A stretch of DNA of 44,662 nucleotides from Vectrevirus T145P2, in sequence record OZ035802.1; one strand, 5' to 3'. Shown one piece after another: positions 3,440 to 28,711 of the stretch (position 1 is the stretch's first letter; every line of letters starts with the position of its first letter). The translations under genes and the position numbers were made by a program. Under the pieces are notes generated by a model that was not told where the DNA came from, ran no database searches, and saw nothing but the letters and a program-made list of their open reading frames with translations.

Positions 3440-3572
3440 GTCTAAGAAGGTTGTAGGTGCACTGGTTGCACTTGTTATTGCTCTTGTTTCTGTAGGTCTT
3501 GGTGTAGACCTTGGCTCTGGCACGGAATCCTCTGTGACAGATGTGGTCTGCCAAGTGATTACCTGTGAATAA
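3423..3572 (+). CDS. small single-TMD protein (49 aa), holin/antiholin-like or N-terminal part of a spanin
   Basis: MKKLFKSKK then hydrophobic VVGALVALVIALVSVGLGV; inside lysis cassette. Confidence 0.35.
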   Translation: MKKLFKSKKVVGALVALVIALVSVGLGVDLGSGTESSVTDVVCQVITCE

Positions 3573-3786
3573 GTTCCTAGAAGTGCTGGCAGGTCTTATT
3601 GGCCTGCTTGTCTCTGCTAAGAAGAAACAAGAAGAGAAGGAGGCACAAAGTGAAGCGAATCATGCTAGCGACAATCCTGCTGATTGGTTCGCTGACCACT
3701 TCCGGGTGTCAGCAGGCGTTACCAGAGAAGGCAATGGTGAAACCTCTGAGGCCGACGCTGACGGCAGTTTACGAGGTGGACGATAA
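3565..3786 (+). CDS. candidate i-spanin-like ORF (short, atypical)
   Basis: GTG start; hydrophobic N-terminus FLEVLAGLIGLLVSA; overlaps the lipoprotein ORF in another frame. Confidence 0.3.
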   Translation: MNKFLEVLAGLIGLLVSAKKKQEEKEAQSEANHASDNPADWFADHFRVSAGVTREGNGETSEADADGSLRGGR

Positions 3787-3913: not shown

Positions 3914-3990
3914 AAGATAGTGCCGTTCTTTTGAGCGGCCTATTACTAGCCAATCTTCATAGGGAGGGTTGGGAAGTAATAGGAGGTCTA

Positions 3991-5430
3991 ATGGCTAAAA
4001 TTACCAAACCTGTCACAACTGGTATTATACATGAAGGTGGATTGCTGTCAGATTATCTAAAACAAGCATGGGATAACACCTTACACGCTGATAACTACTT
4101 TGTTAGTGTTAAAGATTTTGGTGCTAAGGGTGATGGCTCTGCCGATGATACTGCTGCATTCAAAGCTGCACTTGCTTCTGGTAAGAACGTGTATATCCCT
4201 GTAGGTATTTATATAATTAGTGAGACTTTGTATTTTAAGAATCAGGTTATAAAAGGTGGCGGCATAGCACCTGTCCCTAGTCTTGGTACAATCCTTGCAA
4301 TTTCACACAATGAGCCTGCATGGAAATATGATGAAAGCGCAGGTTACTCTATGGGTGGTTATTTAGGTGGGTTCTTCATAGATTATGGAGAGAACAAACC
4401 AGATAACTATGCAGGCAGAAAAGGCATAGATCTAGGTGATGACGACCAACAAGCATGGCCTTCTCAATTTATCATTGAGAACATCATTGTCCGTGGTGCA
4501 TACTTTGGTTTGCATGATGAAACAGGAGCATTCCAATACTCAATGCGCAATGTGGTTGCTATCAATTGCTGGGAGGGGTTCCGTAAGTTCACTGGAACTA
4601 CAGTCCTTATGGATACATGCTATGCGCTTAATTGCTATCAAGCATATAGACTGGCTAATGTTTATAATATGACAATGAATAACTGCGCCATGGATGGATG
4701 TAATGATATCCAAGGTTTACAGGCATTTGATATTACAAACTGCAAAGGTCTTGTGATAAATGGCATGTATAGTGAGAATTGTGAGATCCATCATAGCGGT
4801 AATGCTTCTATATTTATTCATGGAGATTCTACAGTAACAATCAACGGTTATGCCTTACACTCGCATAATGTCGTTGTTGATCCAGCATCTGGAAGTGAAG
4901 AAGCATACTTTCTTAGAGCGCACGACAGCTCTAGGGTCAATGTAGATGGAATCTTCTTCGGTGAGAACCTTAAATCTACTAGTATCTTCACCTACCCAAT
5001 TATGGCCTCTGGTGAGTCTAGAATTAAGCTAGGAACTACAGCACTTAAGGCATGGGTCGGTGCTAAGGGTGGTGCATCTATGGCTGCTGTTGGAGATAGT
5101 CTCATTGAATATGACAATACCGTATTTAACCCATCACTTACTGTAGGTTGGTGCAGTAATAATGGTGTTGTAGCTAAAGGGACACTAGTTGTAAACACAA
5201 CATTAGAACCTAATGCAGATTTAAATGCAGGAACTATACAATTAGTTGGTGACTATAAACCAAATAAAGGTGATGTTCTTACATATGGTTCTACTTTCGA
5301 TGTTCAATCATGTGCTATTATTCTGAAGCCACAAGGTGATAATAGTTGTAATGTTTACATTAAAAATCTAAGTGCAGGTAGTAGTGTTACACTTAACGGA
5401 ATATTGCACGTACAGGCAATTCGTAGGTAA
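3991..5430 (+). CDS. tailspike 1, right-handed beta-helix pectate-lyase-like depolymerase
   Basis: ATG after TAGGAGG; N-terminal VSVKDFGAKGDGSADDTAAFKAA motif typical of pectate-lyase-fold tailspikes; repetitive N/G/T-rich beta-helix composition. Confidence 0.7.
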   Translation: MAKITKPVTTGIIHEGGLLSDYLKQAWDNTLHADNYFVSVKDFGAKGDGSADDTAAFKAALASGKNVYIPVGIYIISETLYFKNQVIKGGGIAPVPSLGTILAISHNEPAWKYDESAGYSMGGYLGGFFIDYGENKPDNYAGRKGIDLGDDDQQAWPSQFIIENIIVRGAYFGLHDETGAFQYSMRNVVAINCWEGFRKFTGTTVLMDTCYALNCYQAYRLANVYNMTMNNCAMDGCNDIQGLQAFDITNCKGLVINGMYSENCEIHHSGNASIFIHGDSTVTINGYALHSHNVVVDPASGSEEAYFLRAHDSSRVNVDGIFFGENLKSTSIFTYPIMASGESRIKLGTTALKAWVGAKGGASMAAVGDSLIEYDNTVFNPSLTVGWCSNNGVVAKGTLVVNTTLEPNADLNAGTIQLVGDYKPNKGDVLTYGSTFDVQSCAIILKPQGDNSCNVYIKNLSAGSSVTLNGILHVQAIRR

Positions 5431-5514: not shown

Positions 5515-7950
5515 ATGATTCAAAGACTAGGTTCTTCATTAGTTAAATTCAAGAGTAAAATAGCAGGTGCAATCTGGCGTAACTTGGATGACAAGCTCAC
5601 CGAGGTTGTATCGCTTAAAGATTTTGGAGCCAAAGGTGATGGTAAGACAAACGACCAAGATGCAGTAAATGCAGCGATGGCTTCAGGTAAGAGAATTGAC
5701 GGTGCTGGTGCTACTTACAAAGTATCATCTTTACCTGATATGGAGCGATTCTATAACACCCGCTTCGTATGGGAACGTTTAGCAGGTCAACCTCTTTACT
5801 ATGTGAGTAAAGGTTTTATCAATGGTGAACTCTATAAAATCACGGATAACCCTTATTACAATGCTTGGCCTCAAGACAAAGCGTTTGTATATGAGAATGT
5901 GATATATGCACCCTACATGGGTAGCGACCGTCATGGCGTTAGTCGTCTGCATGTATCATGGGTTAAGTCTGGTGACGATGGTCAAACATGGTCTACTCCA
6001 GAGTGGCTAACTGATCTGCATCCAGATTACCCTACAGTGAACTATCATTGTATGAGTATGGGTGTATGTCGCAACCGTCTGTTTGCCATGATTGAAACAC
6101 GTACTTTAGCCAAGAACGCACTAACCAATTGTGCATTGTGGGATCGCCCTATGTCTCGTAGTCTGCATCTTACTGGTGGTATCACTAAGGCTGCAAATCA
6201 GAGATATGCAACAATCCATGTACCTGATCACGGACTATTCGTGGGCGATTTTGTTAACTTCTCTAATTCTGCGGTAACAGGTGTATCAGGTGATATGACT
6301 GTTGCAACGGTAATAGATAAGGACAACTTCACGGTTCTTACACCTAACCAGCAGACTTCAGATTTGAATAACGCTGGAAAGAGTTGGCACATGGGTACTT
6401 CTTTCCATAAGTCTCCATGGCGTAAGACAGATCTTGGTCTAATCCCTAGTGTCACAGAGGTGCATAGCTTTGCTACTATTGATAACAATGGCTTTGTTAT
6501 GGGCTATCATCAAGGTGATGTAGCTCCACGAGAAGTTGGTCTTTTCTACTTCCCTGATGCTTTCAATAGCCCATCTAATTATGTTCGTCGTCAGATACCA
6601 GCTGAGTATGAACCAGATGCGGCAGAGCCATGCATCAAGTACTATGACGGTGTATTATACCTTATCACTCGTGGTACTCGTGGCGACCGACTAGGAAGCT
6701 CTTTGCATCGTAGTAGAGATATAGGTCAGACTTGGGAGTCACTGAGATTTCCACATAATGTTCATCATACTACCTTACCTTTTGCTAAAGTAGGAGATGA
6801 CCTTATTATGTTTGGTTCAGAACGTGCAGAAAATGAATGGGAAGCAGGTGCACCAGATGATCGTTACAAGGCATCTTATCCTCGTACCTTCTATGCACGA
6901 TTGAATGTAAACAATTGGAATGCAGATGATATTGAATGGGTTAACATCACAGACCAAATCTATCAAGGTGACATTGTGAACTCTAGTGTAGGTGTAGGTT
7001 CTGTTGTAGTTAAAGACAGCTACATTTACTATATCTTTGGTGGTGAAAACCATTTCAACCCAATGACTTATGGTGACAACAAAGATAAAGACCCATTTAA
7101 AGGTCATGGACACCCTACTGATATATACTGCTATAAGATGCAGATTGCAAATGACAATCGTGTATCTCGTAAGTTTACATATGGTGCAACTCCTGGTCAG
7201 GCTATACCTACTTTCATGGGTACTGATGGAATACGAAATATCCCTGCACCTTTGTATTTCTCAGATAACATTGTTACAGAGGATACTAAAGTTGGACACT
7301 TAACACTTAAAGCAAGCACAAGTTCCAATATACGATCTGAAGTGCAGATGGAAGGTGAATATGGCTTTATTGGCAAGTCTGTTCCAAAGGACAACCCAAC
7401 TGGTCAACGTTTGATTATTTGTGGTGGAGAAGAGACTTCGTCATCTTCAGGTGCACAGATAACTTTGCACGGCTCTAATTCAAGTAATGCTAAGCGTATC
7501 ACTTATAACGGAAATGAGCACCTATTCCAAGGTGCACCAATCATGCCTGCTGTAGATAACCAGTTTGCTGCTGGTGGACCTAGTAACCGATTCACTACCA
7601 TCTACCTAGGTAGTGACCCTGTTACAACTTCAGATGCTGACCACAAGTACGGTATCTCTGGTATTAATACCAAGGTGTTAAAGGCTTGGAGCAGGGTTGG
7701 TTTTAAACAGTATGGTTTGAATAGTGAAGCAGAGAGGAATCTTGATAGCATACACTTCGGTGTCTTGGCTCAGGATATTGTAGCTGCTTTTGAAGCTGAA
7801 GGATTGGATGCCATTAAGTATGGAATTGTGTCCTTCGAAGAAGGTAGGTACGGTGTGAGATATAGTGAAGTTCTAATCCTAGAGGCTGCCTACACTCGCC
7901 ATCGTCTTGATAAATTAGAGGAGATGTATGCCGCTAATAAAATCAGTTAA
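5515..7950 (+). CDS. tailspike 2, endosialidase-like with C-terminal intramolecular chaperone domain
   Basis: 811 aa; two sialidase Asp-boxes (SGDDGQTW, SRDIGQTW); last ~105 aa resemble the autocleaving chaperone domain of endosialidases with SDADHK Ser-Lys motif; N-terminal SLKDFGAKGDG. Confidence 0.8.
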   Translation: MIQRLGSSLVKFKSKIAGAIWRNLDDKLTEVVSLKDFGAKGDGKTNDQDAVNAAMASGKRIDGAGATYKVSSLPDMERFYNTRFVWERLAGQPLYYVSKGFINGELYKITDNPYYNAWPQDKAFVYENVIYAPYMGSDRHGVSRLHVSWVKSGDDGQTWSTPEWLTDLHPDYPTVNYHCMSMGVCRNRLFAMIETRTLAKNALTNCALWDRPMSRSLHLTGGITKAANQRYATIHVPDHGLFVGDFVNFSNSAVTGVSGDMTVATVIDKDNFTVLTPNQQTSDLNNAGKSWHMGTSFHKSPWRKTDLGLIPSVTEVHSFATIDNNGFVMGYHQGDVAPREVGLFYFPDAFNSPSNYVRRQIPAEYEPDAAEPCIKYYDGVLYLITRGTRGDRLGSSLHRSRDIGQTWESLRFPHNVHHTTLPFAKVGDDLIMFGSERAENEWEAGAPDDRYKASYPRTFYARLNVNNWNADDIEWVNITDQIYQGDIVNSSVGVGSVVVKDSYIYYIFGGENHFNPMTYGDNKDKDPFKGHGHPTDIYCYKMQIANDNRVSRKFTYGATPGQAIPTFMGTDGIRNIPAPLYFSDNIVTEDTKVGHLTLKASTSSNIRSEVQMEGEYGFIGKSVPKDNPTGQRLIICGGEETSSSSGAQITLHGSNSSNAKRITYNGNEHLFQGAPIMPAVDNQFAAGGPSNRFTTIYLGSDPVTTSDADHKYGISGINTKVLKAWSRVGFKQYGLNSEAERNLDSIHFGVLAQDIVAAFEAEGLDAIKYGIVSFEEGRYGVRYSEVLILEAAYTRHRLDKLEEMYAANKIS

Positions 7951-8077
7951 GCAAGCTGCTGTACGCCAGAACGCAGAAGAACTTATTCAATCAGGACGTG
8001 ACCCTAAGCAGGCATACGCCATTGCCAAGGATGTACAACGTCGTGCCTTGAAGAAACCTTCTGCATCTTCTGCTTAA
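7928..8077 (+). CDS. hypothetical small basic ORF (49 aa) at right end
   Basis: ATG overlapping tailspike 3' end in another frame; no clear RBS. Confidence 0.2.
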   Translation: MPLIKSVKQAAVRQNAEELIQSGRDPKQAYAIAKDVQRRALKKPSASSA

Positions 8078-8283
8078 GCAGGTTAATATCTTAGTGTACA
8101 CAAGGGCAGACCTAGGTTTGCTCTTAGTGCCATCAAAGGAGGGTGTAGGTATGTTATCTTTGTTGTGTATACTCAGTGATGTCCTAGGTCGTAAGAGGTA
8201 CATTCTTAGTGAAGACCAAATAAGGGACGAGAAGATACGGAGGTCGCTCACAAAGTAACCAAAGTCAAAATTTTGATATAGGC

Positions 8284-8520
8284 GTGTGTGAGGTGTCTCG
8301 CCCTCGCCCTCGCCGGATTTCCCCCATATGGGGCCGCGCTGCGGTTGGCTTGGGAATTGGGCTGGGCTGGTCCGTCTTCGACGGGTGGCCTAGGGCTTGC
8401 CGAGGTCTGCTCTTAGTGGCTGCACAAGGAGAACGCCTAGGAAGCGCTAGGGCACGCCTTAGTATTGGACAAGGTGATTGCCTTAGTGCAACCGCTTAGG
8501 GCTTACACAGGCCGTTTTAG
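8284..8520. other. GC-rich island with CTCGCC x3 and CCCCCATATGGGG palindrome (terminal-repeat candidate)
   Basis: GC content visibly above genome background; T7 carries a similar CCCCCATAGGGGG near its left end as I recall. Confidence 0.4.
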
Positions 8521-8967
8521 GGCCATTCCTGAGCATTTGACAGGGTGAGCGTGGGTGGGCTATCTGTTCGTTTCGCTCCACTACGTTACGCTACACTCAC
8601 CGCGCTTGTGTATCCTTGGTATAATCCTGATGGATGGCTTAGGTTAGCCTTAGTGGGATACCTTAGTTAAAGCCTTAGTGCTTAGCTTAGTATCAACTTA
8701 GTAGTGTACCTTAGTAAGTCTTAGTGTCTTCTCTTAGTGATTGCATAGCTAAAGCTATAAGATGCAATTAGGTCGCGGTCGGTAGACCGCTAATAAGAAG
8801 TAATAGTAATAAGATGCAGTAGGAGGAACACCAGAAACCTAGCCAACCTAGTCTATCCTAGCTCTGTATCTATTGCTTTCCTTAGTCTCACATGTTAGAC
8901 AACCTAGGTTTACCTTAGCAGTTGTGACAGGTATCACATAAATAATCTATCTTAGTGCGATTTAGTG

Positions 8968-8996
8968 TTGACGTAGGCAGTTAACAGGTATACATT
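8968..8996 (+). promoter_or_regulatory. candidate host sigma70 early promoter
   Basis: TTGACG - 17 bp - TACATT. Confidence 0.4.
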
Positions 8997-9219
8997 AGCA
9001 ATCAGTCGGGAGCGACATTAAACACTCAGGGTGAATGATAGAGAGCGTCCTTAACTATCCGGCCTAGCTACTGAAGCCGTTAAACAATGTTAGATAGTGG
9101 AAGATGGCGCAAGCATAACCTACCACGATAAACCAAGGTTAGCGCAATGCTCTTTAACAATTTGCTTAGTGTAACCTGTGTATGCCGTGGTTAATTACTT
9201 ATTGAATGAGGAATTAACT

Positions 9220-9336
9220 ATGAATTATGAAGAAATGTATGAAGTCTATTTCGACTCATTAGATGAAGGAGAAGAAGCATTAACCTTCGCTGAGTTTATG
9301 GAGGCTTTATGGAGTTTCTATCATGACTCTAAATAA
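9220..9336 (+). CDS. hypothetical small acidic early protein (38 aa)
   Basis: ATG after GAGGAA; MNYEEMYEVYFDSLDEGEE... Confidence 0.35.
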   Translation: MNYEEMYEVYFDSLDEGEEALTFAEFMEALWSFYHDSK

Positions 9337-9502
9337 CCGTGAACTGTCCGTTCTCTTCACTCTGTTGTGCTACATGATTCGTAACAACGAATTACTTACG
9401 GAGGATGAGTTAGCCTTGTATCACCGATTCCTTAACGAAGGTTGGACCGATACAGTTAATCAATACCGTAACATGATAGATGAATTGAGGGAGGGTAAAT
9501 AA
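9323..9502 (+). CDS. hypothetical early protein (59 aa)
   Basis: ORF with overlapping start; stop overlaps next start. Confidence 0.4.
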   Translation: MTLNNRELSVLFTLLCYMIRNNELLTEDELALYHRFLNEGWTDTVNQYRNMIDELREGK

Positions 9503-9726
9503 TGTATCAACATGAGGTATTTTTTGAATCATCTAGCGAAGCTATTCGCTTCCACGATGATATGCTACAAGCTGGCGTAGGTGTTGATGTACATCACTTC
9601 CTACTAGATTACGACACTGAATATCACCGAGTTACCTTAGTATCTGAGTATGACAACCAAGTCATTACTGAGTATCTAGGTAGTGAAGATTATGATTACG
9701 ATGAAGTAATCACGACAAATCTCTAA
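9502..9726 (+). CDS. hypothetical acidic early protein (74 aa)
   Basis: AGGGAGGG RBS; D/E-rich with DYDYDE tail. Confidence 0.5.
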   Translation: MYQHEVFFESSSEAIRFHDDMLQAGVGVDVHHFLLDYDTEYHRVTLVSEYDNQVITEYLGSEDYDYDEVITTNL

Positions 9727-9734
9727 ATTAACTA

Positions 9735-9763
9735 TTGACAACCACGGCATACAAGGTTACATT
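9735..9763 (+). promoter_or_regulatory. candidate host sigma70 early promoter
   Basis: TTGACA - 17 bp - TACATT, same architecture as 8968. Confidence 0.4.
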
Positions 9764-10010
9764 AAGCATCAAGACGGCGACGTCTTTAAACATCACGCTC
9801 TTTAACAATAGAGATTAGGCCGGGAGTATCGGTGTGAGGGATAAGGAGGCTTTCCCACAATTAAACTGGTGGCAAAAGGATTGCCCAGCTTTATAGCCCA
9901 GTTATGGATAGCAATAGCGTAAGGATGGCAGCACACCCGCGAGTCTAATCTCTAGCTCTTTAACAATCTGGTTTGTGTCTTGATAGGCTTACTAACAAAG
10001 GTGAACTATC

Positions 10011-10175
10011 ATGACTAACGCACAACGTAAACGCTATGATGCATTGCAAGAGAAACTTGCTGTTGCTTATGCCGCTTGGCAAGCTAACACAGACAAGAGC
10101 AAACACGATAAACTTTATAGTAAAGTGGTTGCAATTAATGCTAAAATAGATAAACTTGTGAATAGTATCTTATAA
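10011..10175 (+). CDS. hypothetical basic early protein (54 aa)
   Basis: ATG after AAGGTGA; helical K-rich sequence. Confidence 0.4.
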   Translation: MTNAQRKRYDALQEKLAVAYAAWQANTDKSKHDKLYSKVVAINAKIDKLVNSIL

Positions 10176-10324
10176 GATAGTTGCTGGCACTAGCCAGCCT
10201 ATCAAGGCACAAGCCACGCTCTTTAACAATATGGGTAGTCGCTTCTTAGTCTGGATAGGTTAAACCTAGGGTATTCTTTTGAGTGCCCTATAATGTAACC
10301 TAACTAACTAATGAGGATTAAATC

Positions 10325-10654
10325 ATGGAACGCAACGCTAACGCTTACTACAACCTTCTGGCTGCAACTGTTGAAGCATTCAACGAGCGCATCAAGTACG
10401 ATGAGATTCGTGAAGATGATGATTACTCTGATGCACTGCATGAGGTTGTAGATAGCATGGTGCCAGTTTATTACAGCGAAATCTTTACTGTGATGGCTGC
10501 TGATGGCATTGATGTTGATTTTGAAGATGCTGGTTTGATTCCTGATACGAAGGATGTAACCAAGATTCTACAAGCTCGCATCTATGAAGCTCTTTATAAT
10601 GATGTACCAAATGACAGCGATGTAGTTTGGTATGAAGGCGAAGAAGAGGAATAA
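10325..10654 (+). CDS. ocr: Ocr-like DNA-mimic anti-restriction protein (T7 gene 0.3 homolog)
   Basis: 109 aa, very acidic; recognisable similarity to T7 Ocr as I recall it (IKYDEIREDDD...VPVYYSEIFTVMAADGIDVDFEDAGLIPDTKDV..ILQARIYE) and EEEE tail. Confidence 0.8.
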   Translation: MERNANAYYNLLAATVEAFNERIKYDEIREDDDYSDALHEVVDSMVPVYYSEIFTVMAADGIDVDFEDAGLIPDTKDVTKILQARIYEALYNDVPNDSDVVWYEGEEEE

Positions 10655-10658
10655 TAAG

Positions 10659-10772
10659 ATGGAAAGGCAATATAACTTCATATTTTCAGACGGTGTAACC
10701 CTGAAATGTTCCTTACGATTTGCGCAGATTCGTGAGGAAGTGCTAGGTACTACATACAAACTATTTAGCTGA
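10659..10772 (+). CDS. hypothetical small ORF (37 aa)
   Basis: ATG 5 nt after ocr stop; overlaps the 10763 promoter; weak. Confidence 0.25.
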   Translation: MERQYNFIFSDGVTLKCSLRFAQIREEVLGTTYKLFS

Positions 10773-10787
10773 CACTATAAGAGAAGG
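10763..10787 (+). promoter_or_regulatory. variant SP6-like phage promoter
   Basis: ATTTAGCTGACACTATAAGAGAAGG. Confidence 0.45.
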
Positions 10788-10848
10788 CTTAACAAGGCGT
10801 TGCTACGGTAGCGCCTGATTAAACTTTCACTTACTAGAGGTTAAGATT

Positions 10849-10974
10849 ATGAAACTATCGCCATCCGCTAAAGGCCTCATTGCAGAACTTAAAGATTCTT
10901 TGAGGAATCCAATCATTTGGGCACTTATCTACATACCTTATGGTATCTACCTATTTCACCTCATCACTGAGTAA
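10849..10974 (+). CDS. hypothetical small membrane protein (41 aa)
   Basis: AGAGG RBS; hydrophobic C-terminal half IIWALIYIPYGIYLFHLI. Confidence 0.35.
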   Translation: MKLSPSAKGLIAELKDSLRNPIIWALIYIPYGIYLFHLITE

Positions 10975-11037
10975 CTAGCCTATAGCCTACCTGAGTGGGC
11001 TATGTGATACTTACTTACACTATATAAGGTGATTACT

Positions 11038-11922
11038 ATGACTACTGAAAACGTCCTCCTGTCTGTTCGTGAAGCTGCAACCGCTGAAATCAAGCAGCAC
11101 TTAGACAATATCGGCACTTCTTACATCAAAGTTGGCGCTTGTCTGAATGAATTACGCGGTGATTTCGAAGGTCAAAAAGACTTTTTAGCTTATGTAGAAT
11201 CAGAGTTCGGCATCAAGAAGGCACAATGCTACAAGCTGATGAGTGTAGCCCGTGTCTTTGAAGGAGACGAACGCTTTAAAGGTGTGGCTATGCGTGTAAT
11301 GTTGGCGCTTGTTCCTTTCGCTGATGAAAATATAATCATGGAGAAGGCCGCAGAACTCGCCGCAGCTGGCAAGCTGGACACTAATGCCGTAAACGCCCTG
11401 ATTGAACCTAAGAAAGAGATAAAGACTGAAACGGTACAATCTAAGGCTGAGGCGGTAAAACAGCAGGAGAACGCTACTGAGGCCGCAGAATCACAGGAAA
11501 TGCAAGCGCCGCAGGTAGTGCCACCAGCGAGCGAGCAGGAGGCCGACGAATCAGCACCATGGGAAGAGGAAAGCAAGCCGGAAGCGCCAAAGGCAGCGCC
11601 GCTGGATAACACGGCTAATACCGAAAACGCCGCTATGGCTAGCCTCTTAGCACAAATTAAGGCACTGACTGAGCAATTACAGGCAGCTAATGACCGCATC
11701 GCCTCCTTAAGTAGCGCACGCGAAAGCAAGAAGGCAGCCGCACCTATGCTGCCGCAATTCAAATCTTCCTGCTTCTATGCTCGCTTAGGTTTAAGCGCTG
11801 AGGAGGCAACGAAGAAAACAGCAGTTAACAAGGCACGCCGCGAACTGGTTAAGCTAGGCTATGGTGAAGGCCATGAAGCATGGCCCTTAATCTCTGAGGC
11901 AGTAGAAGAGTTGACTAAGTAA
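11038..11922 (+). CDS. hypothetical early protein with acidic Ala/Pro/Glu-rich linker
   Basis: 294 aa; AAGG RBS; sits just upstream of RNAP like T7 gene 0.7, but no kinase motifs seen. Confidence 0.6.
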   Translation: MTTENVLLSVREAATAEIKQHLDNIGTSYIKVGACLNELRGDFEGQKDFLAYVESEFGIKKAQCYKLMSVARVFEGDERFKGVAMRVMLALVPFADENIIMEKAAELAAAGKLDTNAVNALIEPKKEIKTETVQSKAEAVKQQENATEAAESQEMQAPQVVPPASEQEADESAPWEEESKPEAPKAAPLDNTANTENAAMASLLAQIKALTEQLQAANDRIASLSSARESKKAAAPMLPQFKSSCFYARLGLSAEEATKKTAVNKARRELVKLGYGEGHEAWPLISEAVEELTK

Positions 11923-11985
11923 CCTTATCGGTGGCATCTTCTTAGGTGTCACCTATTAAGGTTTCTTTCACTAGGAGTAAACAAG

Positions 11986-14613
11986 ATGCAAGACCTACAC
12001 GCTATTCAACTTCAACTTGAAGAAGAAATGTTTAACGGCGGTATCCGTCGCTTTGAAGCGGACCAACAACGCCAGATTGCATCCGGTAATGAATCAGACA
12101 CGGCATGGAATCGCCGCTTATTGTCCGAACTAATCGCACCTATGGCGGAAGGTATTCAGGCTTACAAGGAAGAATACGAAGGCAAGAGAGGTCGTGCACC
12201 ACGTGCATTAGCTTTCATTAACTGCGTAGGAAACGAAGTGGCAGCATATATCACCATGAAAATCGTTATGGATATGCTGAATACAGACGTTACCTTACAA
12301 GCAATCGCTATGAATGTAGCGGACCGCATCGAAGACCAAGTACGTTTTAGCAAGCTGGAAGGTCACGCAGCTAAGTACTTTGAGAAAGTGAAGAAGTCAC
12401 TTAAGGCTAGCAAGACTAAATCTTATCGTCATGCGCACAACGTAGCGGTAGTAGCTGAGAAATCTGTTGCTGACCGTGACGCGGATTTCTCCCGTTGGGA
12501 GGCATGGCCTAAAGACACCTTGCTGCAAATCGGTATGACCTTGCTCGAAATATTGGAGAATAGTGTATTCTTCAATGGTCAACCTGTCTTCCTTCGTACC
12601 TTGCGCACTAACGGCGGAAAGCATGGTGTTTACTATTTACAGACCAGTGAACATGTTGGAGAGTGGATAACTGCATTTAAGGAACATGTAGCGCAGCTCA
12701 GCCCTGCCTATGCACCTTGCGTTATACCTCCCCGCCCTTGGGTATCACCTTTTAACGGTGGGTTTCATACTGAGAAAGTAGCAAGCCGTATTCGTCTGGT
12801 AAAAGGCAATCGTGAGCACGTCCGCAAGCTGACCAAAAAGCAAATGCCAGCCGTTTATAAGGCTGTTAACGCTTTGCAGGCAACTAAGTGGCAGGTTAAT
12901 AAAGAGGTTTTACAGGTTGTGGAGGACGTTATACGTCTAGACCTCGGCTATGGTGTGCCTTCCTTTAAACCACTCATCGACCGTGAGAACAAGCCAGCTA
13001 ATCCAGTGCCGTTAGAGTTCCAGCACCTGCGAGGCCGTGAACTTAAAGAGATGCTAACGCCGGAACAATGGCAAGCCTTCATCAACTGGAAAGGCGAATG
13101 TACCAAGCTGTATACCGCTGAAACTAAGCGCGGCAGCAAATCGGCGGCGACCGTCCGCATGGTTGGGCAGGCACGTAAATACAGCCAGTTTGACGCCATC
13201 TACTTCGTGTATGCACTGGACAGCCGCAGCCGCGTCTACGCGCAATCTAGCACGCTCTCTCCGCAATCAAACGACTTAGGCAAGGCATTGCTCCGTTTTA
13301 CCGAAGGGCAGCGCCTTGATAGCGCTGAGGCGCTTAAATGGTTTTTGGTGAACGGGGCTAATAACTGGGGTTGGGATAAGAAGACTTTTGACGTGCGCAC
13401 CGCTAACGTGCTGGATAGTGAATTTCAAGACATGTGCCGCGACATTGCAGCGGATCCGCTTACCTTCACTCAATGGGTGAATGCCGAATCCCCTTACGGC
13501 TTCCTTGCTTGGTGCTTTGAATATGCGCGTTATCTGGATGCACTGGATGAAGGCACGCAAGACCAATTCATGACGCACCTCCCCGTCCATCAAGATGGTA
13601 GTTGTTCTGGTATCCAGCACTACAGTGCTATGCTACGCGATGCAGTAGGTGCGAAAGCGGTAAACCTTAAGCCCTCTGACTCCCCTCAAGATATTTATGG
13701 TGCCGTTGCGCAGGTAGTAATTCAGAAGAATTATGCATACATGAATGCAGAGGATGCGGAAACCTTCACTTCTGGCAGCGTGACTTTAACAGGTGCGGAA
13801 CTGCGTAGCATGGCTAGTGCGTGGGATATGATAGGAATCACTCGCGGCCTGACCAAAAAGCCCGTAATGACACTACCTTACGGCAGCACACGTCTAACCT
13901 GCCGTGAGTCAGTGATTGATTATATCGTTGATTTGGAAGAAAAAGAGGCCCAACGGGCTATTGCGGAAGGGCGTACCGCCAATCCTGTACATCCTTTTGA
14001 TAATGACCGCAAAGACAGCCTGACACCTAGCGCAGCTTATAACTATATGACAGCTTTAATCTGGCCTTCTATTTCGGAAGTGGTTAAAGCTCCTATAGTG
14101 GCAATGAAAATGATTCGTCAGCTTGCACGTTTCGCAGCTAAAAGAAACGAAGGCTTAGAATATCCCTTACCAACTGGCTTCATCTTGCAACAAAAGATAA
14201 TGGCTACCGATATGCTCCGCGTATCCACTTGCTTGATGGGTGAAATCAAGATGAGTCTCCAGATTGAAACAGATGTAGTTGATGAAACGGCAATGATGGG
14301 TGCGGCTGCTCCTAACTTCGTCCATGGTCACGATGCTAGCCACCTGATTCTGACTGTATGTGACCTGGTGGATAAAGGTATTACATCCATTGCAGTCATC
14401 CATGATTCTTTCGGTACTCATGCAGGACGTACCGCAGACCTGCGGGATAGCTTAAGGGAAGAAATGGTTAAGATGTATCAAAACCATAATGCCCTGCAAA
14501 ACCTGCTAGATGTGCACGAAGAGCGTTGGTTAGTAGACACCGGAATCCAAGTACCAGAGCAAGGAGAGTTTGACCTTAACGAAATCTTAGTTTCAGACTA
14601 TTGTTTCGCATAA
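11986..14613 (+). CDS. single-subunit DNA-dependent RNA polymerase (SP6-type)
   Basis: 875 aa; N-terminus [32 protein letters not shown] nearly matches SP6 RNAP as I recall it; conserved [14 protein letters not shown] and HDSFGTH motifs. Confidence 0.97.
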
Positions 14614-15080: not shown

Positions 15081-17069
15081 ATGGCTATTATTCAGAATGT
15101 ACCGTGTCCTGCCTGTCAAAAGAATGGACATGATATTACTGGCAACCATCTTATGATATTTGAGGATGGCGCTGGTTACTGTAACCGTGGTCACTTCCAT
15201 GATAACGGCAAGCCTTATTACCATAAGCCAGAGGGTGGCATCGAGATAACCGAATTACCTATTACTGGCAATATCAAATATACACCTTCTCAGTTTAAAG
15301 AGATGGAGAAGGAAGGGAAGATTAGCGACCCTAAGCTACGCGCCATCGCACTTGGTGGTATGCGTATGAAAGACCGTTGGGAGGTCATGAATGAGCAAGA
15401 AAGGGCAGACCAAGAAGCAGAGTGGAAACTTGATGTTGAATGGTTCCTCACGCTTAAGCGTAAGAATCTTGTTTCCCGACACATTCGCGGCGACATTTGC
15501 GCATTGTATGATGTACGTGTCGGACACGATGAAGATGGTAGAGTCTCACGGCATTACTATCCACGCTTCGAGAAAGGTGAGCTAGTAGGCGCCAAGTGTC
15601 GCACATTACCTAAAGACTTTAAGTTTGGTCATTTAGGTAAACTCTTTGGTATGCAAGATCTTTTCGGTATGAATACTTTGTCTCACGTGTTAGACAAGGG
15701 AAGACGAAAGGATTGCTTGCTTATTGTGGGCGGCGAACTGGATGCACTAGCAGCACAGCAAATGCTCCTTGATTCTGCCAAGGGTACTAAGTGGGAAGGC
15801 CAGCCTTACCATGTATGGTCTGTCAATAAAGGTGAGTCTTGCCTTGAAGAGATAGTACAGAACCGTGAACACATCGCCCAATTTAAGAAGATTATATGGG
15901 GTTTTGATGGAGATGAGGTAGGGCAGAAGCAGAATCAGCAAGCGGCTCGCCTGTTTCCTGGCAAATCCTATATCCTTGAATACCCTTCTGGTTGCAAAGA
16001 TGCTAACAAGGCATTGATGGCTGGCAAGGCTAAAGAGTTTGTTGATGCTTGGTTTAATGCCAAGTCATCTGATGAAGTCTTTGGTAGCCAGATTAAATCT
16101 ATCGCATCTCAAAGGGATAAGCTCAAGGCTGCACGTCCAGAGCAAGGGCTATCATGGCCTTGGCCTAAGCTGAACAAGGTAACGCTAGGTATTCGTAAGA
16201 ACCAGCTTATCATTGTAGGTGCAGGCTCTGGTGTAGGTAAGACTGAGTTCCTCCGCGAAGTGGTTAAACATCTTATTGAAGAACACGGTGAATCTGTAGG
16301 CATCATTTCTACAGAAGACCCGATGGTCAAGGTGTCCCGTGCTTTTATCGGCAAGTGGATTGATAAGCGTATTGAGTTACCGCCAACCAACGACCCGAAA
16401 GAAGACGGATACCGTGAGGTGTTCGACTACACCGAGGAAGAAGCTAACGCTGCCATTGATTATGTGGCTGATACAGGAAAGCTATTTGTGGCTGACCTAG
16501 AAGGCGACTATTCTATGGAGAAGGTAGAGCAAACTTGCCTAGAGTTTGAGGCTATGGGCATTTCTAATATCATCATTGATAACTTAACGGGGATTAAATT
16601 AGATGAGCGTGCTTTTGGTGGGAAGGTTGGTGCACTTGATGAATGCGTCAAACGAATTGGTACTATCAAAGACCGACATGCGGTTACGATTTTCCTTGTC
16701 TCTCACCTTACACGTCCTCCGGCAAACCGTACCCAACACGAAGAAGGTGGCGAAGTTATCCTTTCTGACTTCCGAGGCTCAGGCGCTATCGGATTCTGGG
16801 CATCTTACGCCTTGGGGATTGAGCGTAATACAAGAGCTGAAACGCTTGATGAAAGGACTACCACGTACATCTCTTGTGTCAAAGACCGCGACCAAGGTAT
16901 CTACACAGGAACCAAAGTCATGCTCAAGGGTGACATTCAGACCGGACGTTTGAGAGAACCACAAGCTAGAACAAGGTCGTTTGATACAGGCGAAGCAAGG
17001 CAACAAGAAGTACCGGATTTACCGGACACTATAGAAGAGACAACCTTTGACGATGAACAGGGGTTTTAA
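15081..17069 (+). CDS. DNA primase-helicase
   Basis: 662 aa; N-terminal Cys-rich zinc ribbon; Walker A GAGSGVGKTEF; acidic C-terminal tail ending in Phe as in T7 gp4. Confidence 0.9.
   Translation: MAIIQNVPCPACQKNGHDITGNHLMIFEDGAGYCNRGHFHDNGKPYYHKPEGGIEITELPITGNIKYTPSQFKEMEKEGKISDPKLRAIALGGMRMKDRWEVMNEQERADQEAEWKLDVEWFLTLKRKNLVSRHIRGDICALYDVRVGHDEDGRVSRHYYPRFEKGELVGAKCRTLPKDFKFGHLGKLFGMQDLFGMNTLSHVLDKGRRKDCLLIVGGELDALAAQQMLLDSAKGTKWEGQPYHVWSVNKGESCLEEIVQNREHIAQFKKIIWGFDGDEVGQKQNQQAARLFPGKSYILEYPSGCKDANKALMAGKAKEFVDAWFNAKSSDEVFGSQIKSIASQRDKLKAARPEQGLSWPWPKLNKVTLGIRKNQLIIVGAGSGVGKTEFLREVVKHLIEEHGESVGIISTEDPMVKVSRAFIGKWIDKRIELPPTNDPKEDGYREVFDYTEEEANAAIDYVADTGKLFVADLEGDYSMEKVEQTCLEFEAMGISNIIIDNLTGIKLDERAFGGKVGALDECVKRIGTIKDRHAVTIFLVSHLTRPPANRTQHEEGGEVILSDFRGSGAIGFWASYALGIERNTRAETLDERTTTYISCVKDRDQGIYTGTKVMLKGDIQTGRLREPQARTRSFDTGEARQQEVPDLPDTIEETTFDDEQGF
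17005..17030 (+). promoter_or_regulatory. SP6-like phage promoter embedded in 3' end of primase-helicase gene
   Basis: GATTTACCGGACACTATAGAAGAGAC; encodes part of the helicase C-terminal tail. Confidence 0.6.
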
Positions 17070-18689: not shown

Positions 18690-18797
18690 ATGCCAAGTGA
18701 TTATGATTCTGATTGGAATTACTATGACTCAATGAATCCAAAACCAGAACGTTCAGATGATTACTACGAAACAGAGGCAATGTATGAAGACTATTAA
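18690..18797 (+). CDS. hypothetical tiny acidic ORF (35 aa)
   Basis: GGAGGTG RBS; D/Y-rich. Confidence 0.25.
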   Translation: MPSDYDSDWNYYDSMNPKPERSDDYYETEAMYEDY

Positions 18798-26991: not shown

Positions 26992-27462
26992 ATGTCAAAG
27001 ATTTATATTGGCGAATACGTCGTACGCCGTGCAGCTTACCGAGATGCCTTCTGGAATAAACTGTGTGAAAGCCTAGGCAAGAAACCAGATGGGGTATTCA
27101 AAGTATCCCGTGCAGAACCTAATTATAACTCTATTATGTTAGAAGGTGTTGAGAAGCGCGAATGGTATGCACCTTACTTCAAGGTTGTTGACTCATTGCA
27201 AGATGAAGATCCTAGCACGTTGGACAACAATATGGTTACTAAGCCTAAGCACTATGAGTTCTTCGATGGGGTAGAGGCAATCACTATCATTGCTCGTAGT
27301 ATGACCGAGAAGCAATTTGCTGGATATTGCATGGGTAATGCTTTGAAGTATCGTCTGCGTGCAGGGAAGAAATTCAACACGGAAGAAGATCTGAAGAAAG
27401 CAGACTACTACAAAGAGCTATTCCAGAAGCATCGTCACGAATGTATTGATGAGGATATTTAA
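26992..27462 (+). CDS. hypothetical protein (156 aa)
   Basis: GGAGGAATT RBS; KPKHYEFFDGVEAITII...GNALKYRLRAG segment resembles a phage domain of unknown function. Confidence 0.55.
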   Translation: MSKIYIGEYVVRRAAYRDAFWNKLCESLGKKPDGVFKVSRAEPNYNSIMLEGVEKREWYAPYFKVVDSLQDEDPSTLDNNMVTKPKHYEFFDGVEAITIIARSMTEKQFAGYCMGNALKYRLRAGKKFNTEEDLKKADYYKELFQKHRHECIDEDI

Positions 27463-27463
27463 T

Positions 27464-27580
27464 ATGACTTGTCCTAATTGTGGAAGTGAAGAAACAGAAC
27501 ATGTAGTTATGTCAGATACTTATCATTTCTACTTCTGTCATAGCTGCGACACCACCATTGAAGAGGAAGAAGCTGTATGA
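27464..27580 (+). CDS. hypothetical zinc-ribbon mini-protein (38 aa)
   Basis: CPNCGS...CHSCD; overlaps ligase start. Confidence 0.35.
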   Translation: MTCPNCGSEETEHVVMSDTYHFYFCHSCDTTIEEEEAV

Positions 27581-28524
27581 ATATATTCCAATTCCTAGGT
27601 CTTCCAGAAGACCACCGCAATCACCCATTCATGCTGGTGAAACATCGCGGTGAAGTACCTGAGAAGAAATTAACTTTTCCATGTTATGCACAGGTAAAAC
27701 GAGATGGTATATTTAGTGCTGTGGTTGTTCGCAACGATGGTGTCGTTGGTATCTTTGGACGCACTGGAAAGAAACTGGCTAACACGGAAACCTTGGAAGA
27801 ATCTTATTCAGCTTTCCCTACTGGCATTTATCTCGGTGAGTTGCAATCTATGGCTATTGATGTCTACCTTGAAGCACTTTCTGGAGTAGTTAACCCTAAC
27901 CGCACTGAGCCACTGGATTTCATAGGCCAGCAGATTAAAGACAACCTGTATATCGACTTCTTCGATATGTTAACCATTAAGGCATTCCATGATGGATTCA
28001 CTGATGTTTCTTATCTCAAACGTTACGATGCTTTACATCGTCGCATCGGCGCTCATCTTAGCGGGTACAACGCTATCCTTCCTATTACTCCTTGCCATAA
28101 TGAGCGAGAAGTTGAAGCGTTTGCGCAAGAGCAAATAGACGCAGGCCGAGAGGGTGCTGTGTTTAAACTGGACTGTGATTATGAAGCAGGCCACAAAGGT
28201 TATCGTCAGACTAAAGAAGTCCGTAAGGTAACTTATGACCTTACTTGTATTGGCTTTGAAGAAGGCAAAGGTAAGTACAAAGGTAAGGTAGCTAACCTCA
28301 TTTTCAAATGGAAAGGGGGCAAGACAATCAAAGCTATGTTAGGTAAAGGGTGGACTCATGCAGATGCAGAACAGATGTTCCACGATATTAAACATGGTGG
28401 ACGATTGAATGTCATTGGTAAAATCTTTGAAGTAAAAGGTCTTCAGGATTCAAGCAAGGGCAACATTCGTCTGCCCAAAGCGGGAGAATTAAGACATGAC
28501 AAAGATGAACCAGACTTCTTTTGA
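27577..28524 (+). CDS. ATP-dependent DNA ligase
   Basis: 315 aa; adenylation motif KRDG (AQVKRDGIFSAVV) and overall nucleotidyltransferase-like layout. Confidence 0.8.
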   Translation: MNIFQFLGLPEDHRNHPFMLVKHRGEVPEKKLTFPCYAQVKRDGIFSAVVVRNDGVVGIFGRTGKKLANTETLEESYSAFPTGIYLGELQSMAIDVYLEALSGVVNPNRTEPLDFIGQQIKDNLYIDFFDMLTIKAFHDGFTDVSYLKRYDALHRRIGAHLSGYNAILPITPCHNEREVEAFAQEQIDAGREGAVFKLDCDYEAGHKGYRQTKEVRKVTYDLTCIGFEEGKGKYKGKVANLIFKWKGGKTIKAMLGKGWTHADAEQMFHDIKHGGRLNVIGKIFEVKGLQDSSKGNIRLPKAGELRHDKDEPDFF

Positions 28525-28711
28525 TAGCATGAAGGCAACTCGTGCAGTTGAGGTAGCAGAAGCTATCTTCGAAACTTTATCCTGTGGCATGGAAGTGCCA
28601 TATACTTTACTTGCTGATGCAGAAGAACTTGGTCTTTCTGTAGAAGCTATCCAAGAGAAGGTTGACGAATTATATGGTACAGACGAAGAAGAAACCGACG
28701 ATTTCATTTGA
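28496..28711 (+). CDS. hypothetical acidic protein (71 aa)
   Basis: GGAGA RBS; overlaps ligase 3' end. Confidence 0.4.
   Translation: MTKMNQTSFDSMKATRAVEVAEAIFETLSCGMEVPYTLLADAEELGLSVEAIQEKVDELYGTDEEETDDFI

Follow-up and report, generated by a model that had tools for sequence, protein, structure and literature searches.

The leading-end operon of a K1E-like phage carries four exact copies of the boxA element found in the ribosomal RNA (rrn) leaders of Escherichia coli. This operon lies in Vectrevirus T145P2 (sequence record OZ035802.1), and the whole stretch of 44,662 nucleotides (nt) that was analysed is referred to below as the window. Reiterated rrn boxA elements together with covarying helices of the leader-trailer type, closing around coding cassettes, are a variant of the early-operon design of phage T7. 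The region contains a run of small open reading frames (ORFs) around the gene of Ocr, several of them strongly acidic, which a preliminary description had put forward as candidate anti-defence genes. By analogy with rrn, we consider it probable that the region works as an immediate-early operon in which rrn-like cassettes of boxA and helix would deliver small inhibitory proteins. The features of the operon and the ORF at 18690 all lie on the + strand.

boxA copies and long-range helices

The 13-mer GCTCTTTAACAAT matches the rrnH leader boxA of E. coli exactly and is found at positions 9149..9161 (copy 1), 9797..9809 (copy 2), 9955..9967 (copy 3) and 10218..10230 (copy 4). All four copies are exact and on the + strand; the rest of the 44.6 kb contains no further one. 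On the transcribed strand the 13-mer meets the published Nus-factor boxA consensus GYTCTTTAANA (PMC5725501). Between 2 and 5 copies of GCTCTTTAACAAT are present on the + strand of each of 12 SP6-like loci, and T7 has a single copy at 813-825, between promoter A3 and gene 0.3. The T7 boxA is known from the older literature. For SP6-like phages, no description of boxA, or of repeated boxA copies with covarying helices around coding cassettes, was found in the searchable literature, a search that lies apart from the original SP6 and K1-5 genome papers. The boxA before ocr in K1E (at about 2238-2251 of the fetched locus) has an extra T (GCTCTTTTAACAAT) and is the sole imperfect copy of this kind among the Vectrevirus loci.

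Two of the boxA copies are followed by one strand of a long-range helix. Helix A (30 base pairs, bp) begins directly after boxA 1 with its 5′ arm at 9163..9192, which pairs with the 3′ arm at 9740..9768 (duplex free energy dG -48.1 kcal/mol; z -9.4 against shuffled arms) and loops around the three ORFs at 9220..9726. Helix C (21 bp; dG -38.7, z -6.4) begins after boxA 3 with its 5′ arm at 9969..9989, has the conserved core GATAGGCT, and ends just before boxA 4 with its 3′ arm at 10196..10216, which is preceded by a small hairpin (GCTGGCACTAGCCAGC); it loops around an ORF of 54 amino acids (aa). Folding the stretch 9727-10010 as a whole gives a structure that is not better than shuffles (z -0.45); the signal resides in specific helices.

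Covariation was read from an alignment of frames from Vectrevirus, Zindervirus, Tuodvirus, Phimunavirus, Gajwadongvirus, Przondovirus and phages of Klebsiella and Edwardsiella. In helix A, 97.2% of the alignment cells are paired and 10 pairs are compensatory; the corresponding values for helix C are 95.2% and 6, and for either helix the observed score was reached by 0 of 500 shuffles. Sliding the partner by 1-3 columns lowers pairing in helices A and C to 20-44%. On the + strand, G-U pairs stand against A-C mismatches at 40 to 11, an excess which argues that the constraint acts on the + sense RNA. The boxA copies and helices A and C are thus very probably selected RNA features.

Between boxA 2 and boxA 3 lies a non-coding unit of 145 nt (9810..9954) with a closing stem of 13 bp (AGAGATTAGGCCG / CGAGTCTAATCTCT), for which the fold is marginal (z -2.1) and the arms reach z -1.6. 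The unit contains a strong Shine-Dalgarno sequence (TAAGGAGG) and no ORF, and it is complete in eight Vectrevirus records only. Possible explanations are a cassette that has decayed, or a small RNA that is freed by processing.

A consensus scan displays two promoter-like sites of the sigma-70 type, P1 (TTGACG-N17-TACATT, 8968..8996) upstream of boxA 1 and P2 (TTGACA-N17-TACATT, 9735..9763) overlapping the 3′ arm of helix A. The TTGACA of P2 lies outside helix A, yet it is present in 10 of 10 aligned phages; its retention there suggests a sequence with a dual function. Transcription from P2 would begin some 30 nt ahead of boxA 2; a small GACG/CGTC hairpin separates the two, and the succession of P2, small hairpin and boxA 2 resembles the rrn order of promoter, boxB and boxA.

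Some observations weigh against the interpretation of these elements as antitermination and processing frames of the rrn type. P1 and P2 are pattern matches, and such sites are no commoner in the region than expected by chance. The 3′ arms in the covariation alignment were located by best duplex energy, a choice that favours pairing. An inverted repeat maintained at the DNA level would also yield compensatory changes, and it is the G-U bias alone that speaks for RNA. The arms of the 13-bp stem after boxA 2 (helix B) are not significant (z -1.6 against shuffled arms), and boxA 4 is without a long-range partner (z -0.6).

Position of the operon in the genome

Megablast analysis of positions 8900-11000 displays similarity with 105 phage records, the best of which are 97-98% identical (Vectrevirus T145P2, vB_EcoP_C), while K1E and K1-5 share 94% DNA identity with this segment. 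The gene order pairs one-to-one with K1E, K1-5 and SP6. Given the endosialidase tail spike gene at 5515..7950 and the SP6-type RNA polymerase gene at 11986..14613, the window represents a Vectrevirus genome of the K1E/K1-5 type in circular permutation, the left end of which lies near 8.2-8.9 kb. The core of the SP6-type phage promoter, ACACTATA, occurs in 13 copies, exclusively on the + strand, where 1.9 would be expected. Past the genome end, the first such core is at 10772 and the second at 11017; the complete sequence of the first promoter (ATTTAGCTGACACTATAAGAGAAG, 10763..10785) closes the block that depends on the host polymerase only. From the position of this first core it follows that 9220-10772 should be transcribed by host RNA polymerase alone. 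We read this region as the immediate-early operon at the leading end of a K1E-like Vectrevirus. The preliminary description was right in placing the small ORFs of this region among the genes that enter and are expressed first: their place is ahead of both Ocr and the first phage promoter.

The presumed genome end is accompanied by a non-coding stretch (8100-8760) with dense short CTTAGTG / CCTTAGT repeats, which we take to be reminiscent of those near the left end of T7. Beyond the first phage promoter follows a hydrophobic 41-aa ORF (10849..10974, net charge +1) without a PHROG match; in K1E, K1-5 and SP6 its slot is occupied by different membrane-type proteins of 62-75 aa, making it another variable position. 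After the second promoter core, 11029-11922 encodes an acidic protein of 297 aa (PHROG 4571, function unknown) that in all SP6-like loci immediately precedes the RNA polymerase gene. An Rfam scan of 8000-12000 returned sub-threshold miRNA noise alone, at the palindrome 10772-10842, and no tRNA or tmRNA was found.

The small early genes

The operon begins with three ORFs that are chained to each other. The first encodes 38 aa (9220..9336; net charge -10, isoelectric point 4.05) and is a relative of SP6 gp2. The second encodes 59 aa (9323..9502), is mildly acidic (net -4) and corresponds to K1E gp1, K1-5 gp1 and SP6 gp3. The third encodes 74 aa (9502..9726; net -15), corresponds to gp2 of K1E and K1-5, and is a distant relative of SP6 gp4. 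They are followed by the basic 54-aa ORF enclosed by helix C (10011..10175; net +5, isoelectric point 9.8), which corresponds to K1E gp2.8, by the Ocr homologue of 109 aa (10325..10654, K1E gene 3; net -22) and by a 37-aa ORF corresponding to K1E gp4 (10659..10772; net +1). A further acidic ORF of 35 aa is located far downstream (18690..18797; net -9), in the region of K1E gp11.5.

The ORFs at 9220, 9502 and 18690 are present where the preliminary description had placed them, and they are strongly acidic as it had said, including the EDYDYDE run in the product of 9502. Its characterization of the early proteins as mostly acidic applies to 9220, 9502 and Ocr; it does not extend to 10011, which is basic, nor to 10659 and 10849, which are about neutral. 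The ORF at 18690 had been counted among the early ones as well. It is located downstream of the phage-promoter cores at 17026 and 17874 and just before the DNA polymerase gene, and thus belongs to the middle region of DNA metabolism.

Among 56 ORFs on the + strand (a crude set), the lowest net charges per residue are those of 9220 (-0.26), 9502 (-0.20) and Ocr (-0.20). These three all lie inside 1.4 kb, and the chance of such clustering is about 1e-3. Other very acidic small ORFs exist beyond the early region, namely 28496-28711 (71 aa, -0.20 per residue, PHROG 5860, function unknown) and 27449-27580 (43 aa, -0.19 per residue).

The start of the 38-aa ORF is likely the ATG at 9220 rather than the GTG at 9178, since the former is preceded by a GAGGA Shine-Dalgarno sequence, the latter is without one and lies inside an RNA helix arm, and SP6 gp2 begins at the equivalent Met without an N-terminal extension. 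The stop and start codons of 9220, 9323 and 9502 overlap or abut, which suggests translational coupling.

Ratios of nonsynonymous to synonymous substitution (dN/dS) were calculated in pairs against relatives from the 12 SP6-like loci and read where divergence was appreciable. They amount to 0.08-0.18 for the 38-aa, 0.02-0.13 for the 59-aa and 0.09-0.23 for the 74-aa protein, to about 0.11 for ocr and to 0.02-0.08 for the 37-aa protein; substitutions in the early ORFs fall mostly on third codon positions. The early small ORFs are almost certainly genuine genes under purifying selection.

Protein families and their distribution

All of these small proteins have matches in the PHROG database: the 38-aa protein with PHROG 2061 (E 4.5e-14), the 59-aa protein with PHROG 9275 (9e-40), the 74-aa protein with PHROG 6403 (3e-29), the 54-aa protein with PHROG 16783 (6e-41), the 37-aa protein with PHROG 11746 (6e-30) and the 35-aa protein of 18690 with PHROG 15473 (8e-20). 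The matches run end to end, and all six families are listed with "unknown function". Counterparts of the proteins in the window are K1E genes 1, 2, 2.8, 3 (ocr) and 4 and SP6 gp2, gp3 and gp4. Entries named "hypothetical protein [Escherichia phage K1E]" already exist for the exact 59-aa and 74-aa proteins, and every deposited source name for proteins identical or nearly identical to the small ones reads "hypothetical protein". The ORFs are thus already known as hypothetical proteins, and the statement that they lack an obvious known homologue does not hold, in view of PHROG matches with E between 1e-14 and 1e-41 and of annotated hypothetical proteins in K1E, K1-5 and SP6. With the exception of Ocr, the small ORFs are without a family match in sequence searches of Pfam, NCBIfam, PADLOC and PDB. 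Literature searches found no papers on the function of these small proteins, and SP6, K1E and Autographiviridae are not mentioned in two papers on accessory-gene screens.

Profile searches over the fetched loci detected the 59-aa protein in every one of the 12 that are SP6-like and the 38-aa family in 10 of these. The 74-aa family is present in all 12, as the acidic 74-aa form in 6 and as a form of 69-71 aa in the other 6, and additionally in Tuodvirus phD2B. Because they occur in 10-12 of the 12 loci, ORFs 9220, 9323 and 9502 are core genes of the SP6-like group and not accessory ones.

The 74-aa protein has 46 relatives in a word-indexed search, each at least 69% identical and all on contigs of about 44 kb. 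A profile search with the family among 1.84 billion representatives returned four true relatives only, all phage-like and of 73-190 aa. Residues 56-67 (TEYLGSEDYDYD) are invariant except for residue 61, a nearly invariant S; this C-terminal stretch, TEYLGxEDYDYD, includes the EDYDYDE run, and the N-terminal half is variable. The AlphaFold2 model (pLDDT 89.9) has the order beta-alpha-beta-beta-alpha-beta, and the protein is predicted with confidence to be a compact domain of ferredoxin-like fold. Members of the family have in common the fold and three sequence signatures: HE(V/I)(F/Y) in the N-terminal part, Y-x-(V/I)-(T/S)-(L/V) in the centre and aromatic-acidic-acidic-V-(I/N) in the C-terminal part. 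The net charge spans -15 to -1, and the conserved property is therefore not charge mimicry.

Profile searches of the 1.84 billion representatives and of PDB also matched the 74-aa protein with pentatricopeptide repeat (PPR) proteins, an assignment which we reject as a resemblance to a single motif that is multiplied by repeats. The PPR-like part comprises residues 12-33 (helix 1 and the next loop) with one motif, EALxLxxEMxxxGV, which causes profile searches to pick up PPR proteins and inflates their E-values. The 74-aa protein contains no series of helix-turn-helix repeats of about 35 residues, and no single PPR stretch passes the threshold alone.

The 59-aa protein is a predicted three-helix protein. 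It has 116 relatives, nearly all more than 80% identical, and many invariant positions.

The 38-aa family is characterized by the motif Y-E-x-Y-F-x-S-L-x-E-G-E-E-A-L-S-F-x-E-F (31-aa core: MNYEEMYEAYFDSLDEGEEALSFAEFVEALS), and its product would be an acidic helix-loop-helix. The motif is also found in a 42-aa protein from the early region of a T7-like Providencia phage. Net charges in the family span -12 to -3, two variants having just -3 or -4. The family is widespread and is found repeatedly in the first-expressed position, and the best match of PHROG 2061 is the prophage form (6.5e-20). A scan of a genome collection for the family, which used strict patterns, returned one prophage. An unannotated 42-aa member of PHROG 2061 is the first ORF past the repressor gene in Cronobacter phage phiES15 (about 3480-3608 of the fetched locus), and a member of the same length takes the same place in a Citrobacter braakii prophage (3971-4099 of the fetched locus). 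The 38-aa ORF was also considered as an EF-hand and rejected: Pfam gives E 0.014-0.033, well below the cutoff, PDB gives E 0.04, and the glycine is, by eye, out of register with that of the canonical loop.

Ocr and the 37-amino-acid protein

The identification of Ocr is confirmed: the product of 10325..10654 matches Pfam PF08684 with E 2e-31 and 108.9 bits (cutoff 25) over profile positions 5-97 of 101, and it also matches PHROG 2568. ORFs 9220, 9323, 9502, 10011, 10659 and 10849 display no match with the Ocr profile at E <= 1. Ocr is the sole early small protein with an assignable function. It is an all-helical DNA mimic, and its family uses this mimicry to counter type I restriction as well as BREX.

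Between boxA 4 and ocr lies a local hairpin (10230..10327; dG -37.3, z -5.15, 0 of 200 shuffles), with the ribosome-binding site of ocr inside its 3′ strand. A consensus fold displays this hairpin in 8 phages, with 28 pairs of which 4 are compensatory. Its position is that of the RNase III site R0.3 in T7, where R0.3 lies between boxA and gene 0.3; R0.3 is not annotated in the T7 record that was used.

The 37-aa ORF starts 4 nt past the ocr stop and is the most strongly conserved of the early ORFs; its product may be a partner of Ocr. Most SP6-like loci have it behind ocr, and Klebsiella phage H01 encodes a detectable relative.

Exchange of cassettes

The frame of helix C, with the conserved core GATAGGCT...AGCCTATC, encloses at least 11 ORFs without detectable mutual similarity in six or more phage genera. 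Its cargoes include K1E genes 2.5 and 2.8, SP6 gp1, an ORF of ACG-C91, the first genes of PhiM1, PP99 and phD2B, two ORFs in Klebsiella phage H01 and one in an Edwardsiella phage. Another is an unannotated 36-aa ORF (MKGLICVERMVNGKLEILPLENQSSFKEWYGCFSLI) in K1-5 (locus positions 1311-1421) and VEc3 (1462-1572), two phages whose public records give the impression of an empty frame. A protein with 96% identity to the window's 54-aa cargo is encoded by the T7-like Przondovirus K30, where it resides in the same frame upstream of ocr. This cargo and the adjoining cassettes are variable among relatives. It is thus the cargoes of frame C, and not the acidic core ORFs, that are the swappable, accessory-like genes.

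In the window, 9727-10010 is without the 70-aa gene 2.5 cassette of its closest relatives (locus L001 (K1E) 1593-1990, locus L004 1455-2010). The gap falls exactly between repeated frames of boxA plus helix arm, which suggests a deletion by recombination between frames.

Possible functions and alternative explanations

One tentative reading holds that the trio at 9220-9726 encodes host-takeover proteins directed against housekeeping targets such as RNA polymerase, cell-division or cytoskeleton proteins, nucleoid proteins or proteases. The trio would then replace the T7 functions 0.4, 0.6, 0.7 and gp2, which are not found in this early region; no homologue of T7 0.4-0.7 was detected among the early ORFs. 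T7 gp2 is a small acidic inhibitor of host RNA polymerase. This reading agrees with the core status of the trio across Vectrevirus and Zindervirus, which infect Escherichia, Salmonella and Citrobacter, and with strong purifying selection, and a conserved target would be in keeping with the invariance of the C-terminal motif in the 74-aa protein and of most residues in the 59-aa protein. However, there is no structural or sequence tie to known takeover proteins, and RecBCD and type I restriction are conserved targets, too, such that a core distribution is also compatible with anti-defence.

The preliminary description had favoured the view that the small acidic proteins of 9220, 9502 and 18690 are anti-defence inhibitors of the DNA-mimic type, soaking up DNA-binding defence proteins at genome entry, which we regard as unlikely for the set as a whole. 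In its favour, the most acidic proteins of the genome lie ahead of Ocr at the entering end, and the adjoining cassettes are mosaic. The 38-aa family is also first after the repressor in two lambdoid prophages and early in the T7-like Providencia phage, a position that suits a factor needed at once. Among the small early proteins of T7 with known function, about two of five act against defence. The structural argument points the other way: the 74-aa protein is predicted to adopt a ferredoxin-like fold and not an elongated charge array, and the acidity of its family is not conserved, which together argue against DNA mimicry; the weakly charged variants of the 38-aa family also speak against it. 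Anti-defence islands are usually patchy in presence, while the ORFs at 9220-9726 are core genes with dN/dS of about 0.1, neither patchy nor fast-evolving, and 18690 is a middle gene. No match to a characterised anti-defence protein or a known DNA-mimic family was found in Pfam, NCBIfam, PADLOC and PDB by sequence or in PDB and BFVD by fold, a search that comprised no dedicated anti-defence library.

Overall, anti-defence and the takeover of a conserved host function are of comparable likelihood. Weighing these points protein by protein, the balance between yes and no is even for a conserved host function of the core 59-aa and 74-aa proteins, which is likelier than a defence system as their target, an assignment that appears rather doubtful. 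For the 38-aa protein and the 54-aa cargo, an anti-defence role is a serious possibility that falls somewhat short of even. Taken singly, any given small protein has a modest chance of being an anti-defence factor, and a chance ranging from modest to even of targeting a conserved host function.

A different explanation concerns the frames themselves, which might mainly be joints for recombination at the DNA level that serve the exchange of cassettes, RNA processing being secondary or absent. Cassettes are gained and lost exactly at the repeats, as with the gene 2.5 cassette missing in the window; unrelated cargo sits in the same frame across genera, and the 54-aa cassette is common to a T7-like phage. 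Nevertheless, we consider this improbable as the main role. Homologous recombination needs direct repeats, not arms that are kept complementary by compensatory changes. The bias for G-U over A-C is strand-specific, and the 13-mer is exactly the Nus-binding boxA of rrn. Recombination at the frames is compatible with a role in RNA and appears more as an addition to it than as an alternative. The shortness of the small ORFs (31-74 aa) and the missing public annotation of some copies (K1E, phiES15) might suggest fortuitous reading frames within an untranslated leader, a possibility that can practically be dismissed in view of changes dominated by third positions, dN/dS of 0.02-0.23, Shine-Dalgarno sequences, coupled start/stop overlaps, protein families conserved across genera and a confident fold prediction.

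Proposed mechanism and comparison with known systems

The interpretation of the boxA copies and helices as rrn-like RNA frames leads to the following model. Host RNA polymerase would start at the sigma-70 promoters near 8968 and 9735. By analogy with rrn, the four boxA copies would recruit NusB/NusE and other Nus factors, rendering the polymerase resistant to termination; read-through may also be faster, and long-range pairing may be assisted. Each helix would then close around its gene cassette and loop it out, as 16S rRNA is looped out in the leader-trailer helix. RNase III would cut helices A and C and the hairpin before ocr, giving discrete mRNAs, and cleavage of the latter would free the ribosome-binding site of ocr. 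Processing of these RNA features by RNase III is, in our estimation, somewhat better than an even prospect. The products made within the first minutes would be the core trio of 38, 59 and 74 aa, the swappable 54-aa basic cargo, and Ocr with the coupled 37-aa protein; those other than Ocr would most likely be stoichiometric binders that inhibit host proteins.

The antitermination complex of Nus factors assembles on boxA in rrn operons, and just downstream of boxA follows the 5′ strand of a leader-trailer helix of 25-40 bp (PMC10250234). This strand is believed to stay close to the polymerase until its 3′ partner has been transcribed; the resulting helix is cleaved by RNase III, at a site that overlaps boxC (PMC10250234). 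Since the phage frames contain rrn parts in rrn order, we infer that the same mechanism may operate here. The 13-nt boxA is identical to that of E. coli, and the 5′ strand of the phage helix, of 21-30 bp compared with 25-40 bp in rrn, lies a few nt from boxA. At boxA copy 1 the core is followed by AATTT and there is a boxC-like stretch, CTGTGT; this similarity to boxC is weak (6-7 of 10 positions by eye). Other differences are that the phage cargo is protein-coding mRNA of 0.2-0.55 kb instead of rRNA, and that the phage element is repeated in tandem.

The class I (early) operon of T7, with promoters A1-A3 and genes 0.3-1.3, is likewise a leading-end operon transcribed by host RNA polymerase. 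It has an exact GCTCTTTAACAAT between the early promoters and ocr and a structured hairpin directly before ocr, and in both phages the run of small proteins ends at the phage RNA polymerase gene. T7 differs in having one boxA, compared with four here and 2-5 in SP6-like phages. The RNase III sites of T7 are local hairpins, whereas two cassettes of the window are enclosed in long-range helices (21-30 bp, spanning 200-550 nt). The T7 gene order starts with Ocr, whereas here three genes precede it.

Small acidic inhibitors are known from other phages and elements, such as T7 gp2 (acting on RNA polymerase), T7 gp5.9 (RecBCD), ArdA and T4 Arn. The acidic ORFs of the window resemble them in being small, strongly negative and early; they differ by the lack of any sequence or fold match and, in the 74-aa family, by a charge that is not conserved. 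From Ocr and PF08684 the other small ORFs are set apart by the lack of a match above threshold to it or to any other Pfam family and by the predicted alpha/beta ferredoxin-like architecture of the 74-aa protein.

Significance

The small acidic ORFs of the preliminary description become three conserved families with clear starts, one confident fold, and a ranking into core and swappable genes, and they caution that charge alone is insufficient for assuming DNA mimicry.

With some reservation, we put forward that enterobacterial phages of the T7 and SP6 type might use portable frames derived from rrn leaders and composed of boxA, helix, ribosome-binding site and cargo, and that the 38-aa protein might be a first-strike inhibitor. 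If so, PHROG 2061 would represent an inhibitor that is common to lytic and lambdoid phages. The frame would recruit the antitermination and RNA-chaperone machinery of rRNA synthesis together with RNase III, so that short mRNAs are made fast and excised, and its conserved ends would let unrelated cargo, likely an anti-defence repertoire, move between phage genera.

Should the frames work as proposed, the transcription and processing system of host rRNA would be reused for the first genes of the phage. Early expression, and possibly transcription-driven genome entry, would then depend on Nus factors and RNase III, and the frames would provide a simple marker for early cargo genes, candidates for counter-defence, across many Autographiviridae.

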